DNA from: a virus
Lineage: Duplodnaviria; Heunggongvirae; Uroviricota; Caudoviricetes
Length of the DNA stretch: 50,611 nt
Strand: one strand, 5' to 3'
IMG/VR virus record: IMGVR_UViG_3300010234_000001
Location: 1 to 50,611 of that record
Shown: piece after piece, positions 852 to 33,428 of the stretch
Numbering within the stretch: the first letter of the stretch is position 1
How the letters are laid out: each line of letters opens with the position of its first letter
The notes under the pieces: model-generated
What the model was told of the DNA's origin: nothing
The model's input: the letters and a program-made list of their open reading frames with translations, nothing else
The model's database searches: none
Program-made: the position numbers and the translations under genes

Positions 852-1481
852 TTGTTCTATACTGTATATAAAATAACTAATAATATCAACGGCAAATATT
901 ATATCGGCAAACATCAGACTAAAGACCTTGATGATGAATACATGGGTTCCGGTAAACTATTGAAACATGCTATTAACAAGTATGGTATCGAAAATTTTAA
1001 CAAAGAAATACTTCATGTATTTGATAATGTAGAGGAAATGAATGCCCGAGAAGCAGAACTTGTTATTGTATCTGAAGGCACATATAATTTATGCGAAGGT
1101 GGACAGGGGGGATTTGGGTATATTAATCAAAGTCGTTCTTCTGAAAATAGAAGAAACTCAATACTATTAAAAATGCGACAAGATAAAAATTATAAAGAAA
1201 CATGTTCCAAATCATTAATTGAATTTAATAAGAAACCGTCTAATAATGCTAAAATAGTTAGATCAAAAAATATGACATTGTGGAATAAAAATAATAAAAA
1301 TCCAATGTCGGGAAAAAAACATTCTACAAAAACTAAAAATTTAATGGCTGATAAGAAAATTGGTAAAAATAATCCATCTTTTGGCACTTGCTGGATAACA
1401 AATGGAAATGAAGTCAAGAAAATTCCCCTAGAGGCACTTGACAGCCACCTAGAAATGGGTTATCATAAGGGACGAAAGTAA
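852..1481 (+). CDS. free-standing GIY-YIG (seg-like) homing endonuclease with NUMOD3-like segment
   Basis: YTVYKITN..NGKYYIGKH, YMGSG, E..YN..GG motifs; NPMSGKKHSTKTK; AT-rich; TTG start. Confidence 0.9.
   Translation: MFYTVYKITNNINGKYYIGKHQTKDLDDEYMGSGKLLKHAINKYGIENFNKEILHVFDNVEEMNAREAELVIVSEGTYNLCEGGQGGFGYINQSRSSENRRNSILLKMRQDKNYKETCSKSLIEFNKKPSNNAKIVRSKNMTLWNKNNKNPMSGKKHSTKTKNLMADKKIGKNNPSFGTCWITNGNEVKKIPLEALDSHLEMGYHKGRK
1438..1466 (+). promoter_or_regulatory. sigma70-like early promoter embedded in the endonuclease 3' end
   Basis: TTGACA-N17-TATCAT. Confidence 0.7.
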
Positions 1482-1997: not shown

Positions 1998-2327
1998 ATG
2001 CGATCATACGGTTATAAATTGAGTGCGGTCATTGATAAAGTTGTACTTTATCGAAGCCAGTCCTTTCCTAATGCAAAGAAGTGTTTCGCCGTCCATTACT
2101 TCTTCAAGGACGGCGAAAACATCATGGGTGGTTATTTGATGCTTGTTAATCCCAAAAAATGGGATTGGGCAGTATTCCAAGGAAAGGTTATATCGCAAAC
2201 CGGCGATAGATATCATCCAACTATGGATGAGGCTCTTACAAGCCTGATTAATGAAACTACGGATGATGATTCGAACGATTTGGATGGAACTGCAAAGCTT
2301 GTAAAGAATAAGGAAATTCGTTCTTGA
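1998..2327 (+). CDS. hypothetical protein
   Basis: ORF tightly packed in the operon. Confidence 0.6.
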   Translation: MRSYGYKLSAVIDKVVLYRSQSFPNAKKCFAVHYFFKDGENIMGGYLMLVNPKKWDWAVFQGKVISQTGDRYHPTMDEALTSLINETTDDDSNDLDGTAKLVKNKEIRS

Positions 2328-2752
2328 TGAGAATTGAAGAATTTTGTTATACCAAAAAGGATTTTAATCTTGATTGGTTTTCCGGTACTGGCGCTGGTGG
2401 GCAACACCGCAACAAACACCAAAACTGTTTAAGATTAACCCATATTCCTAGCGGAATTACTGTAACCGCAAGTGATAATCGTGATCGTGTTTCCAATCAA
2501 CGAATTGCTTTTGAAAGACTGAAAGAGCAATTGGAACCTTGGATTAAACGGCAATTATCAAGTTTTGAGGTTCCTAGGTCAAATGAGACCATAAGAACGT
2601 ACAACGAAGCGAAAAATTATGTAAAGGATCATGCCTCCGGGGAAAAAATTCCGTATAAAGAGCTTGACAAGCGCTTCGGGGACATGATAGGATACAGACA
2701 TCAATGGAGAGTTGGCAGAGCGGCCTATCGCGACGGTTTGCTAAATCGTTGA
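2324..2752 (+). CDS. truncated class-1 release-factor-like peptidyl-tRNA hydrolase (GGQ domain); 3' end overlaps tRNA-Ser
   Basis: SGTGAGGQHRNK..CLRLTHIPSGITV and IRTYN...VKDH.SG; no N-terminal RF domains. Confidence 0.85.
   Translation: MMRIEEFCYTKKDFNLDWFSGTGAGGQHRNKHQNCLRLTHIPSGITVTASDNRDRVSNQRIAFERLKEQLEPWIKRQLSSFEVPRSNETIRTYNEAKNYVKDHASGEKIPYKELDKRFGDMIGYRHQWRVGRAAYRDGLLNR
2664..2693 (+). promoter_or_regulatory. early promoter inside the RF-like gene, just upstream of tRNA-Ser
   Basis: TTGACA-N18-TAGGAT with the CATG element seen in other promoters of this window. Confidence 0.55.
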
Positions 2753-2795
2753 GCCTTAACGGGTTCCGGGGGTTCGAATCCCTCACTCTCCGCCA
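2706..2795 (+). tRNA. tRNA-Ser(GCU)
   Basis: ggagagt/actctcc+GCCA; anticodon arm acggt-ttGCTaa-atcgt; long variable arm; TTCGAAT T loop. Confidence 0.95.
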
Positions 2796-2828: not shown

Positions 2829-3152
2829 ATGTCGATTATTGAAAAACTTCAAAACCTAATGGATAGAAATCCGGAATTTAAAAAAGACATTTTAAATATG
2901 CATGAGGCATACGTTGTCGAAATGCGTAGGCAACTTGACGTGCCCGATGACTGGTCATACACTCGTCAGAGAATGATCAAAAAGGATTGGGACAAACTTG
3001 TCGATATCCTTGGCGAACAGGATATTCGGGTTGTTTCCGGCAACAGCTTCCATTTCGATAAAGATATGAATGTCATATACGAAATGTCATATTTTTATTC
3101 CCCCGAAGCCCGAAATCGGGCAATTCTAAAACAACAGGAGCTTGGAATATGA
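2829..3152 (+). CDS. hypothetical protein
   Basis: AAGGAAG SD, ORF. Confidence 0.7.
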   Translation: MSIIEKLQNLMDRNPEFKKDILNMHEAYVVEMRRQLDVPDDWSYTRQRMIKKDWDKLVDILGEQDIRVVSGNSFHFDKDMNVIYEMSYFYSPEARNRAILKQQELGI

Positions 3153-3863: not shown

Positions 3864-4132
3864 GACAAGTTATATGGAGTCAACAAACCGCCACATCGTG
3901 GATCGCAACGGAATATGGTGTTCCGTTTGATATATCAGTACAGCACGCCGTCATATTTGCCATAGATCATCCATTCACCGAAAAGGTTATGTATACCGGA
4001 CTCTGGTTGGATAACGATGATATTTTATGGGAAAATGGTCCAATTTGCGATGAAAAATCATTGCCTTTGGCCTATGATTGTGTTAACGTTGAATTACAAA
4101 GAATTGGATTAGGGGAAGTGAAATATGGCTAA
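3860..4132 (+). CDS. hypothetical protein
   Basis: ATGA overlap. Confidence 0.65.
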   Translation: MRQVIWSQQTATSWIATEYGVPFDISVQHAVIFAIDHPFTEKVMYTGLWLDNDDILWENGPICDEKSLPLAYDCVNVELQRIGLGEVKYG

Positions 4133-4760
4133 GGACATTTGGATAATTTCGGATACCCACTTCGGTCACACAAACTTTTTAAAGTTTCGTGACAGCAACG
4201 ATAATTTGATTCGACCATTCTTCACTGTTGATGATATGGACGAATATATGGTCACCAAGTGGAATGAAATAATCAAGCCACACGACAAGGTATACCATCT
4301 TGGCGACGTGTTCTTTGGTAATGCAGACAAGGCGGAAAAAATCCTCGCGAGACTGCATGGTAAGAAGAGATTACTTCTTGGTAATCACGATATTCTGGAG
4401 AAGACTTTTGAGCATATGCCGGAATTCTCTTCGGGATGGACAGTTAAGGATAGTGTCCTTCGTTTCCATTTCGAAAAGATCATGCTTTGGCGTCCATTCG
4501 GGAAAGAGAAGATTATGCTTTCCCATATTCCGCTAAGGAAGGACCAGATGGGGCATGACGCCGGGGAATTTAACTCGGACGATCCGGATGCGCAAGCAAA
4601 GTTTTTTAAGAATTTCGTTCTGAATGTGCATGGTCATATTCATCATCAGGTTATCGATGAGCCGGAATATTACAATGCGTGCGTGGAGCACCACGACTAT
4701 TCACCCATTCACCTTGACACGCTGATAGCGGAGCGAAATAAAAGGGCTGGCGGGGGTTGA
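4125..4760 (+). CDS. calcineurin-like metallophosphoesterase
   Basis: SDTHFGH, HLGD, GNHD, SHIP, HGHIH motifs. Confidence 0.9.
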   Translation: MAKDIWIISDTHFGHTNFLKFRDSNDNLIRPFFTVDDMDEYMVTKWNEIIKPHDKVYHLGDVFFGNADKAEKILARLHGKKRLLLGNHDILEKTFEHMPEFSSGWTVKDSVLRFHFEKIMLWRPFGKEKIMLSHIPLRKDQMGHDAGEFNSDDPDAQAKFFKNFVLNVHGHIHHQVIDEPEYYNACVEHHDYSPIHLDTLIAERNKRAGGG

Positions 4761-5362: not shown

Positions 5363-5633
5363 AAAGGTTAAGCTGGTAATCAACTCGTATCTGATTGATG
5401 CAATCAAGGAAACGTTTAAGATTTTGTTGATTATCGTGATTAGTGGGAGTCTATTGATTCTCACATCAATAATATTCGTATCCTTGCTTATTCATTTTTG
5501 GCCTCTGGCGATTGTGTTCATGATATTGATCATTGGCGTATTCATCGCGTGGATGCACTTCGTCTTGACTGCCCCTTCGTATAACACATGGCTATTCAGA
5601 TTTGAGAAGGTAAAAGATGATGAAACCGATTGA
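5355..5633 (+). CDS. small 2-TM membrane protein (paralog 3)
   Basis: MSEKVKLVI start, two hydrophobic helices. Confidence 0.7.
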   Translation: MSEKVKLVINSYLIDAIKETFKILLIIVISGSLLILTSIIFVSLLIHFWPLAIVFMILIIGVFIAWMHFVLTAPSYNTWLFRFEKVKDDETD

Positions 5634-6063
5634 TGCTATAATCTTTGATATTGATGGTACGTTGCTGGACAACAGTCACCGTCTCCATCACATCAAAGAA
5701 AAGCCGAAGGACTGGCTTACATACGTTGCCGAATTGGATAATGATACACCAATCCCGGAAACAGTAGAATTGCTTGAATTGCTCATGGAGCAAGGATACG
5801 CGATTATTCTTAGCACCGGTCGCAAAGAATCGGAGCGGGAAGGTACCGAAGCCGTTTTTGAGCGATACGGAATTGAATTCGATGAGCTTTACATGCGTCC
5901 GAACGGTGATAATCGCCGGGATGATATACTGAAGCAGGAAAACTTGGATAAAATCAAGCTTGTTTATAAACCAATAATGGTGTTTGAAGATCGAACGCGA
6001 TGCTCGGAAATGTATCGCAATAATGGTCTTAAATGCTATCAGATAGCAAAAGGGGATTTTTGA
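5617..6063 (+). CDS. HAD-family phosphatase resembling the PseT/PNK 3'-phosphatase domain, stand-alone
   Basis: IIFDIDGTL, STGR, LYMRP.GD.R.D...K, VFEDR motifs. Confidence 0.85.
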   Translation: MMKPIDAIIFDIDGTLLDNSHRLHHIKEKPKDWLTYVAELDNDTPIPETVELLELLMEQGYAIILSTGRKESEREGTEAVFERYGIEFDELYMRPNGDNRRDDILKQENLDKIKLVYKPIMVFEDRTRCSEMYRNNGLKCYQIAKGDF

Positions 6064-32441: not shown

Positions 32442-32478
32442 TATAAATAGTGCATAGGAGGATAACTCTATGCACTAT
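32442..32478 (+). promoter_or_regulatory. late promoter overlapping a hairpin that sequesters the SD and AUG
   Basis: TATAAATA 32442-32449; atagtgcata 32447-32456 pairs with tatgcactat 32469-32478. Confidence 0.85.
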
Positions 32479-33006
32479 ACGATATACAAAATAACAAACT
32501 TAGTAAACGGTAAAATCTACATCGGAAAACATCAAACCAACAATTTGAACGACAATTACTATTCATCATCAAAAATTTTAATTGATGCTATAAAAAAACA
32601 TGGTAAAGATAATTTTCGAAAAGAAATTTTGTTTGATTTTGATGAAGAAGAAGATATGAATATGAAAGAAGCTGAAATTGTTTCAGAAGAATTTGTCAGT
32701 CGGCAAGACACTTACAATGTCGCATTAGGAGGGAATGGTGGTTGGTCTTACATCAACGATGGTTCCAATGAACACTTGGATAGAGCCAGAAAGGCTTCGA
32801 AGAAAGGCTTTGAAAATGCTAGAAATCACCCAAATTGGGGTAAGACATCCTTTCAAAAAGGTGATCCGAAAGTTGCGCAATTAGCCATAAAAGCAAATGA
32901 ATATAGAAAAAAATATGGTCTGACAAAAGAACATAAAAATAAAATTCGTCAAGCGTCTTTAAAAAGAGAACAACAAAGACGAGAAACTGGATACTATCAG
33001 AAATAA
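32470..33006 (+). CDS. free-standing GIY-YIG (seg-like) homing endonuclease
   Basis: YTIYKITN.VNGKIYIGKHQT, F.KEIL, E.EIV, TYN...GG.GG; paralog of 852..1481. Confidence 0.9.
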   Translation: MHYTIYKITNLVNGKIYIGKHQTNNLNDNYYSSSKILIDAIKKHGKDNFRKEILFDFDEEEDMNMKEAEIVSEEFVSRQDTYNVALGGNGGWSYINDGSNEHLDRARKASKKGFENARNHPNWGKTSFQKGDPKVAQLAIKANEYRKKYGLTKEHKNKIRQASLKREQQRRETGYYQK

Positions 33007-33007
33007 C

Positions 33008-33080
33008 GCTGACTGATAGCTCATCATAGATCGACTGGATTGTGGTATGGACCCGGTTTCGATTACCGGCATCTCCACCA
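33008..33080 (+). ncRNA. ssrA: two-piece tmRNA, acceptor piece (5' end approximate)
   Basis: gac-ccggt-TTCGATT-accgg-CATCTCC-ACCA. Confidence 0.9.
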
Positions 33081-33088
33081 AAATATAT

Positions 33089-33306
33089 GGGGATGAAAGG
33101 ATTTCGACATATACGAAAAGGAAGATTTAGGTGTTCGACAAGATGCTGTCGTTAAATAGAATCACAAACTAAACGCAAACCTAACTGCGAGCAACGACAA
33201 TGTTGCAAATAAGGGTAAGCCTTCTCGCGGAATCGTCAATGACGGTTTCGCTATTGCGGCCTAACCTATGAGCTTCGGGAGTGAGCTTGGAAACAGAATC
33301 ACTCCC
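33089..33306 (+). ncRNA. ssrA: two-piece tmRNA, coding piece; tag ANLTASNDNVANKGKPSRGIVNDGFAIAA* at 33175..33264
   Basis: GGGGATG pairs with CATCTCC including G3:U70; ...TTCGAC D-region; tag ends in AA*; 3' hairpin gggagtga-gcttggaaacagaa-tcactccc. Confidence 0.9.
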
Positions 33307-33319
33307 AACTTATTTGAAT

Positions 33320-33428
33320 CGGAAATGTATCATTAGTTTAACTAGCGGAATCTAGTCAATGCTAGGATGCAGAGAAGGCCCGACCGCTAAAGACTAGAAT
33401 GGGGGTAAGCTCTGGTGATACATTTCCG
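33320..33428 (+). ncRNA. unclassified structured RNA
   Basis: 13-bp perfect closing stem cggaaatgtatca/tgatacatttccg with internal helices; no ORF. Confidence 0.5.

Follow-up and report, generated by a model that had tools for sequence, protein, structure and literature searches.

A phage gene for a small release-factor (RF)-type protein with a GGQ motif runs, without a stop codon of its own, into the tRNA-Ser gene that follows it and closes inside that tRNA. We favor, with a probability of about 0.55, the view that this overlap is a local by-product of array packing and recombination, unselected or weakly selected, and not a conserved regulatory device, because the junction appears to be lineage-specific and because many ORF-tRNA junctions of this kind exist elsewhere in such arrays. 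The stretch of DNA analyzed, hereafter called the window, is 50,611 nucleotides long and represents the first 50.6 kb of a complete virus record (a 178.6-kb phage; 178,611 bp, with terminal repeats). Positions marked "genome" are those of the full record.

The GGQ gene closes inside tRNA-Ser

The features at the junction are as follows.

2327..2752, + strand: GGQ-only release-factor-domain gene (ATG at 2327, alternative TTG at 2324; ORF list, Pfam)
2325..2329, + strand: TGATG overlap, in which the stop of the upstream ORF (1968-2327) and the ATG at 2327 share one base (read from the sequence)
2706..2795, + strand: tRNA-Ser(GCT) of class II; the variable arm is long and CCA is encoded (ARAGORN; Rfam RF00005, 44.4 bits)
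2829..3152, + strand: next gene, 107 aa, no family match in a Pfam search, own AGGAAG ribosome-binding site (ORF list)

The GGQ gene encodes 141 aa from the ATG or 142 aa from the TTG. Since the stop of the upstream ORF overlaps the ATG at 2327 and AAGGAA is found 12 nt upstream of it, this ATG is the likely start, and the TGATG arrangement suggests that the upstream ORF and the GGQ gene are translationally coupled; in our alignment, the homologs start at the same N-terminal position. An earlier, sequence-only reading of this DNA had stated that the frame has no stop ahead of the tRNA +1 at 2706, extends 47 nt into the tRNA, and stops at 2750-2752, and the ORF list, ARAGORN, and Rfam all agree with it. 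The +1 falls in codon 128, and the protein ends in ...GYRHQ|WRVGRAAYRDGLLNR, where WRVGRAAYRDGLLNR is the tRNA-coded tail, and the stop is a UGA at tRNA positions 45 to 47, between the anticodon stem and the variable arm. A run of 15 codons into unselected sequence is about what chance would give after the loss of a stop, which makes the length of the tail unremarkable.

Aligned with five other phage tRNA-Ser(GCT) genes, the tRNA looks like a normal member of class II. Its acceptor stem has 7 bp and is perfect (GGAGAGT/ACTCTCC), and since the CCA is also encoded, we regard the assignment of +1 to 2706 as firm at the sequence level; the RNase P site is predicted between 2705 and 2706. The next gene begins only 33 nt past the 3' end of the tRNA and has its own ribosome-binding site, so tRNA-Ser is predicted to lie within a protein-coding operon.

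The gene product resembles domain 3 of class I release factors

The GGQ protein matches the Pfam RF-1 family (PF00472) over residues 10 to 103 (E value of 7.7e-18; 65 bits against a cut-off of 35). Its GGQ motif (G25-G26-Q27) is invariant in 51 aligned relatives, and because it retains 17 of the 17 family-invariant residues in the alignment, the gene appears to be intact rather than decaying. We built a family profile from the 50 closest relatives and ran it against PDB structures. Profile positions 15 to 129 aligned to residues 238 to 362 of the 365 residues of E. coli RF2, a region that, in a class I release factor, comprises domain 3 and the last helix. The GGQ protein aligned only to these residues of RF2 and to residues 196 to 322 of RF1; within its 142 aa, domains 1, 2, and 4 of a full class I release factor and a PxT or SPF motif are missing. 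We assign the gene on these grounds to a phage family of GGQ-only release-factor proteins, predicted to have no codon-reading domains.

The relatives can be aligned with the GGQ protein up to an invariant arginine (R125), and the homology to RF1 and RF2 ends at about residue 127 (core end at about 127 to 130), which is also the last codon before the tRNA. The recognizable release-factor homology had been said to end before the tRNA, and the profile alignment to RF2 places the end of the core within ∼3 residues of the tRNA +1. A product ending at Q127 would accordingly lack at most ∼3 residues of the terminal helix and would keep essentially the whole conserved core. In an AlphaFold2 model of the protein (mean pLDDT of 81), the C-terminal helix, residues 111 to 136, extends into the tRNA-coded tail with falling confidence. 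As a prediction, this model speaks neither for nor against a role of the tail and does not appear to separate the readings weighed below.

No ArfB chain was present among the PDB matches (45 matches, at an E value of 0.001 or better for the family profile and of 0.01 or better for the closest homolog), and the GGQ protein lacks an ArfB-type linker and basic tail. Its C-terminal part aligns to the terminal helix of RF1 and RF2, and C12orf65 gave a weak sequence match in the profile comparison. In many of the closest homologs, the C terminus is a conserved K-x-S-G-R, located about 15 residues past the invariant arginine; the motif is absent from the window protein and from the array-embedded clade described below. 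This ending may resemble the ArfB C terminus, although the PDB searches gave no ArfB match.

Homologs at other loci end on their own stops

We then compared homologous loci from four sources, namely, 80 loci from IMG/VR, 80 from JGI metagenomes, three contigs with the closest proteins, and a second IMG/VR scan seeded with a member of the array-embedded clade. At each locus, the stop of the release-factor homolog and the next tRNA were located. The genes that neighbor the GGQ gene in the window are listed here, since some of them recur at these loci.

1498-1995: RNaseH-like gene (PF04308)
4125-4760: calcineurin-like phosphoesterase gene (weak Pfam match)
5617-6063: gene for a PNKP-type HAD phosphatase domain protein

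The sequence-only reading had proposed to look for recurrence of the stop-inside-tRNA arrangement with different tRNAs, and we found none: a release-factor homolog read into a tRNA at 0 of ∼150 homologous loci, which are phylogenetically related, so that the count overstates the number of independent observations, and the window is a singleton. The closest relatives (45 to 75% identity, many of them GC-rich) have their own stops 5 to 20 residues past the invariant arginine, with no adjacent tRNA. That reading had itself counted close homologs stopping before the tRNA against its proposal, and the finding that the closest ones end on their own stops away from any tRNA does argue against a dedicated device. 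In the array-embedded clade (∼40% identity), the proteins end in ...EARAKAVR and the stop always lies 0 to 7 nt before the next tRNA; the clade comprises 21 distinct release-factor proteins that stop in this way before at least nine tRNA species. Their genes start ∼20 to 27 nt after the preceding tRNA, and the clade shares the RNaseH-like (PF04308) and phosphoesterase genes also seen beside the GGQ gene of the window. The same two genes accompany release-factor homologs in many other arrays, and in mycobacteriophage Nanosmite, a metallophosphoesterase gene is located three genes upstream of the RF-1 gene.

Stops inside tRNAs are thus depleted in the release-factor family (1/22, against 15/34 for neighboring ORFs), which appears to have kept its own stop at each of the many different tRNAs that it met. 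By this comparison, the stop-less junction of the window looks lineage-specific and one-off. A megablast search of 50,697 phage records retrieved no near-identical phage genome, and an exact-pattern scan with the 5' half of tRNA-Ser hit three unrelated contigs, none with a release-factor gene upstream.

One contig (L167; JACCDG011191114.1) was considered as a close relative, with 88% identity over release-factor residues 3 to 50, and was rejected as uninformative on the junction, an insert that bears an integrase having interrupted its gene after residue 50. The locus (L167 1420-4000) is GC-rich, and the interrupted gene is followed by ∼2.4 kb with a tyrosine-recombinase-like ORF and, on the other strand, an HNH-like ORF. 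A 43-nt 3' fragment of a tRNA-Ser comes next, and this arrangement suggests an integrative element whose attachment site derives from a tRNA.

Other ORFs of phage arrays also end at or inside tRNAs

The genome contains 11 ORF-tRNA junctions with a gap of 0 to 7 nt, and several more with an overlap. Its layout, as read from the sequence, is tRNA-punctuated, with coding regions flanked by tRNAs and stops at or inside the tRNA 5' ends. Two of the overlapping ORFs have clear families.

genome 161680-162141 (L085:6680-7141): HNH endonuclease, phrog_10822 (1e-53), stop 10 nt inside tRNA Leu-TAG
genome 144372-144731 (L087:1372-1731): SNase-like nuclease, phrog_452 (1e-30) and Pfam SNase, stop 10 nt inside tRNA Gln-CTG

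The stop of both genes is a TAG that coincides with the conserved U8-A9-G10 of the tRNA, and the homology of both reaches the tRNA boundary. Overlaps of this U8-A9-G10 type (-10) recur in many related phage arrays. No ORF for a small basic peptide that extends into tRNA-Lys was detected in the genome.

We took a census of such junctions in 70 non-redundant related loci and this genome, counting distinct proteins in the final figures. A threshold of 80 aa or more was rejected as noise, since it gave 25 stops inside tRNAs against 24 in the antisense control. Longer ORFs gave the following counts, which, the loci being related, do not equal independent events.

Non-RF ORFs of 120 aa or more: 19 stop 0 to 7 nt before a tRNA and 15 inside; antisense control, 4 before and 3 inside
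Non-RF ORFs of 150 aa or more: 10 stop 0 to 7 nt before a tRNA and 11 inside; antisense control, 4 before and 0 inside

Among the tight junctions of long non-RF ORFs, ∼40 to 50% therefore have the stop inside the tRNA, and ending inside the next tRNA appears to be a usual result of how these arrays are packed. The layout is not specific to the release-factor gene, since other long ORFs, including the HNH and SNase-like genes of the same genome, do likewise. When ten long overlapping ORFs from other loci were searched against Pfam, a single weak homing-endonuclease match was obtained, and the reality of these ten ORFs rests on their length and on the antisense control. In Acinetobacter phage 133, which is cultured and annotated, a homing-endonuclease CDS ends 4 nt before tRNA-Trp. 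A search of the open-access literature retrieved no paper on stops inside tRNAs in phage arrays or on RNase P-made non-stop mRNAs for a rescue factor.

Promoter-like sites upstream of tRNA-Ser

Two promoter-like sites bear on how tRNA-Ser is transcribed.

2664..2693, + strand: sigma-70-like promoter TTGACA-N18-TAGGAT with a TG-extended -10 box (consensus scan)
1438..1466, + strand: strong promoter-like site preceding the RNaseH-like gene, TTGACA-N17-TATCAT, with 11 of 12 consensus positions matching (consensus scan only)

The site at 2664, an internal promoter already pointed out from the sequence, is indeed present with TG before its -10 box. It lies within codons 114 to 124 of the GGQ gene, 12 nt upstream of the tRNA-Ser +1. 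The genome has 37 such motifs on the + strand, and 4 of the 37 are found 9 to 16 nt before a tRNA (Ser-GCT, Leu-CAA, Lys-CTT, and Val-TAC), where 0.12 would be expected (P ∼8e-6; 0/20000 permutations). Because this placement before four tRNAs is non-random, the 2664 site is likely to be tRNA-Ser's own promoter, also driving the downstream genes, and the four promoter-tRNA pairs are best described, from their arrangement, as self-contained units with very short leaders. With its own promoter inside the release-factor codons, tRNA-Ser would be supplied independently of the release-factor transcript. The promoters before the three other tRNAs (TTGACA-N17/18-TAnnnT) are located at genome 128338-128366, 167685-167713, and 177126-177154; that of tRNA-Val(TAC) is likewise contained in an ORF (176973-177212), which runs 47 nt into this tRNA.

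The -35 box of the 2664 promoter is coded by L-D-K, which is conserved in the relatives. The -10 box is coded by I-G-Y at a place where the relatives have I-E-A or similar, G-Y being unusual residues there, and this coincidence suggests that the release-factor coding sequence has been bent to fit the tRNA promoter. A sequence scan revealed no terminator-like site between the promoter-like site at 1438..1466 and tRNA-Ser. That site is the likely start of a read-through transcript comprising the RNaseH-like gene, orf119, the release-factor gene, and tRNA-Ser, and any transcript from upstream also contains tRNA-Ser.

tmRNA genes near release-factor homologs

The window had been said to encode a tmRNA as well, and both ARAGORN and Rfam detected one.

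32987..33355 (ARAGORN) or 33018-33264 (Rfam tmRNA_permuted, 93.4 bits), + strand: permuted (two-piece) tmRNA, phage-encoded

A GIY-YIG (SegE-like) endonuclease ORF of the window (32470-33006) ends 20 nt inside the ARAGORN call, which starts at 32987, and before the Rfam start at 33018, so here too an ORF and an RNA gene are tightly joined. At two of the homologous loci, a permuted tmRNA is found within 1 to 2 kb of an RF-1-domain gene (L027 4858-5405 and L039 4020-4391), and the tmRNA tags in these arrays are ANDDVYALAA and ANAANDEVFALAA. The presence of RF-1-domain genes, Pth, and tmRNA in tRNA arrays is already known (PMC5966550), and phage genes for GGQ-only release-factor proteins habitually reside inside phage tRNA arrays.

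Outside the window, the genome also contains a tRNA with the anticodon UUA, an ochre suppressor that reads UAA (genome 173919-173991; L085:18919-18991). It scores 55 bits with Rfam and has a clean anticodon stem and one C-A mismatch in the acceptor stem. The genome otherwise looks standard-code, and the same phage has the GGQ-only factor and the tmRNA.

Possible origin of the overlap

We propose that a tRNA-Ser(GCT) transcription unit became packed onto the 3' end of the release-factor gene, with its promoter in codons 114 to 124 and its +1 in codon 128. The stop ahead of the tRNA being missing, the release-factor frame would close at the first in-frame stop within the tRNA. Upstream transcripts would be translated while being made, and read-through RNA that is still unprocessed would yield the protein of 141 or 142 aa, with its last 15 residues dictated by the tRNA. 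A ribosome reading to 2752 would unfold the 5' half of the tRNA, so that translation to the real stop and folding of the tRNA would be mutually exclusive for a given RNA at a given moment. RNase P cuts at the +1 of a tRNA, and ribosomes at stop-less 3' ends are substrates of tmRNA. Once the tRNA has folded, a cut between 2705 and 2706 would leave an upstream RNA that lacks a stop and a protective 3' structure and ends with ...GYRHQ plus one base. Later ribosomes would run to the end of this RNA and be resolved by trans-translation, using the host or the phage tmRNA, or by another rescue route. The expected outcome is a lower yield, and some of the protein may be tagged or may end prematurely at Q127. 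Two observations weigh against a mere by-product: the depletion of stops inside tRNAs in the release-factor family makes the window an unusual exception that could be under lineage-specific selection, and the presence of a tmRNA gene in this phage genome would agree with a functional link.

The sequence-only reading had interpreted the missing stop as a selected device, in which RNase P makes a non-stop release-factor mRNA whose product is tagged through tmRNA and destroyed until trans-translation becomes saturated, the protein thereby serving as a backup rescue factor by the logic of ArfA and BrfA. The layout would be compatible with such a gate, as no stop precedes the tRNA +1, the part before the tRNA carries nearly the whole conserved core, and a tmRNA is found in the same genome, with tmRNA genes near release-factor homologs in L027 and L039 too. 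Yet none of the ∼150 homologous loci shares the layout, the array-embedded clade has its own stop before at least nine tRNAs, and nuclease genes with no link to rescue show the same overlap; moreover, the protein has no codon-reading domain or ArfB-type tail, and its rescue activity is putative. We hold this device to be decidedly unlikely. What stands of the proposal is the layout, with a stop-less upstream RNA if RNase P cuts at +1, and the presence of the tmRNA; the regulatory purpose finds no support, the arrangement being neither conserved nor gene-specific. A non-stop physical consequence is hence plausible, whereas a dedicated device is not supported, because the layout is absent in ∼150 relatives and common to other array genes. 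Another explanation is an assembly or sequencing artifact, the real phage having a stop immediately ahead of the tRNA. The record comes from metagenome assembly, the relatives' stops lie 0 to 7 nt before the tRNA, and the CAA at 2702-2704 is one transition away from a TAA that would sit 1 nt before the tRNA +1. We nevertheless regard an artifact as highly improbable, given that substitution errors in a consensus are rare, that several other long ORFs of this genome also stop inside tRNAs, and that the release-factor frame is intact up to the junction.

A broader reading places the function in the array rather than in the junction. Phage tRNA/ORF arrays would be tRNA-punctuated, as in mitochondria, and a GGQ-only factor and tmRNA would clear ribosomes from the ends left by RNase P; the release-factor message of the window would be one more such end, and any feedback on it would be incidental. 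ORF stops do cluster 0 to 7 nt before, or inside, the next tRNA, the release-factor genes of the array-embedded clade start ∼20 to 27 nt after the preceding one, and RF-1-domain genes, Pth, and tmRNA are known from tRNA arrays (PMC5966550). This is co-occurrence, however, seen in arrays that were collected through their release-factor homologs; besides, translation during transcription, before processing, could make overlaps harmless, and the release-factor family itself avoids the stop-less layout. We consider this reading unlikely. Quite unlikely, in our estimate, is a fuller version, in which RNase P excision strips or exposes stops across the array, the GGQ-only factor and tmRNA are the phage's own means of clearance, and the release-factor message, being stop-less itself, gives an output that tracks the rescue load. 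With the by-product reading that we prefer, the main value of the junction is as a pointer to a general array layout, with stops at or inside tRNA 5' ends. If RNase P does leave stop-less messages at this junction, then phage tRNA arrays in general would generate many non-stop or end-of-message termination events, which would offer a concrete reason for these arrays so often carrying a GGQ-only factor and a tmRNA.

Comparison with known systems

The nearest counterparts of the GGQ protein are RF-1-domain (PF00472) proteins that occur on their own in the tRNA arrays of phages and mycobacteria (Morgado and Vicente 2018, PMC5966550); these are likewise small GGQ proteins with no codon-recognition domains, encoded in or beside arrays with homing endonucleases and tmRNA. 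They are annotated, for example, in Acinetobacter phage 133 and in cluster mycobacteriophages. The window gene differs from them in that it lacks its own stop and closes within the following tRNA, with the promoter of that tRNA in the gene's last codons, a combination not seen at the homologous loci that we examined.

ArfA and BrfA are small recruiters of RF2, and the stop-less layout of their genes is a family trait. In B. subtilis, brfA is a rescue-factor gene expressed, under tmRNA control, from a non-stop mRNA that ends at an internal terminator, and the non-stop mRNA of arfA arises by an RNase III cut. In E. coli, arfA is a rescue-factor gene expressed from a non-stop mRNA (PMC10107115). 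The window resembles these systems in having a predicted RNA-processing site upstream of the stop of a rescue-type gene (tRNA +1 at 2706 and stop at 2750-2752, a likeness of layout), a truncated product that would keep the conserved part, and a tmRNA. It differs from them in encoding an unrelated protein with a catalytic GGQ domain, in the nature of the cut, which is predicted to be made by RNase P at a tRNA, and in that the stop-less layout is not conserved in homologs (0 of ∼150 loci). Should RNase P indeed generate stop-less messages at this junction, it would add a third independent route to the non-stop mRNA of a rescue-type gene, after RNase III (arfA) and an internal terminator (brfA).

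ArfB (YaeJ) and ICT1 carry, after the GGQ domain, a linker and then a basic C-terminal helix, with which they probe the empty mRNA channel. The window protein shares with them a GGQ peptidyl-tRNA hydrolase domain, a size of ∼140 aa, and the lack of stop-codon recognition, whereas its best matches are domain 3 and the C-terminal helix of RF1 and RF2, and it has no ArfB-type linker or basic tail.

In mitochondria, mRNAs are bounded by tRNAs, stops are incomplete or lost on tRNA excision, and the GGQ-only proteins ICT1 and C12orf65 act in rescue. Unlike mitochondria, the phage arrays belong to a bacterial and viral setting that has no polyadenylation to complete stops, and their processing is predicted from the layout. 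With ORFs that abut or overlap tRNAs and a GGQ-only factor in the same system, mitochondrial tRNA punctuation is the closest analog of the array-wide pattern.
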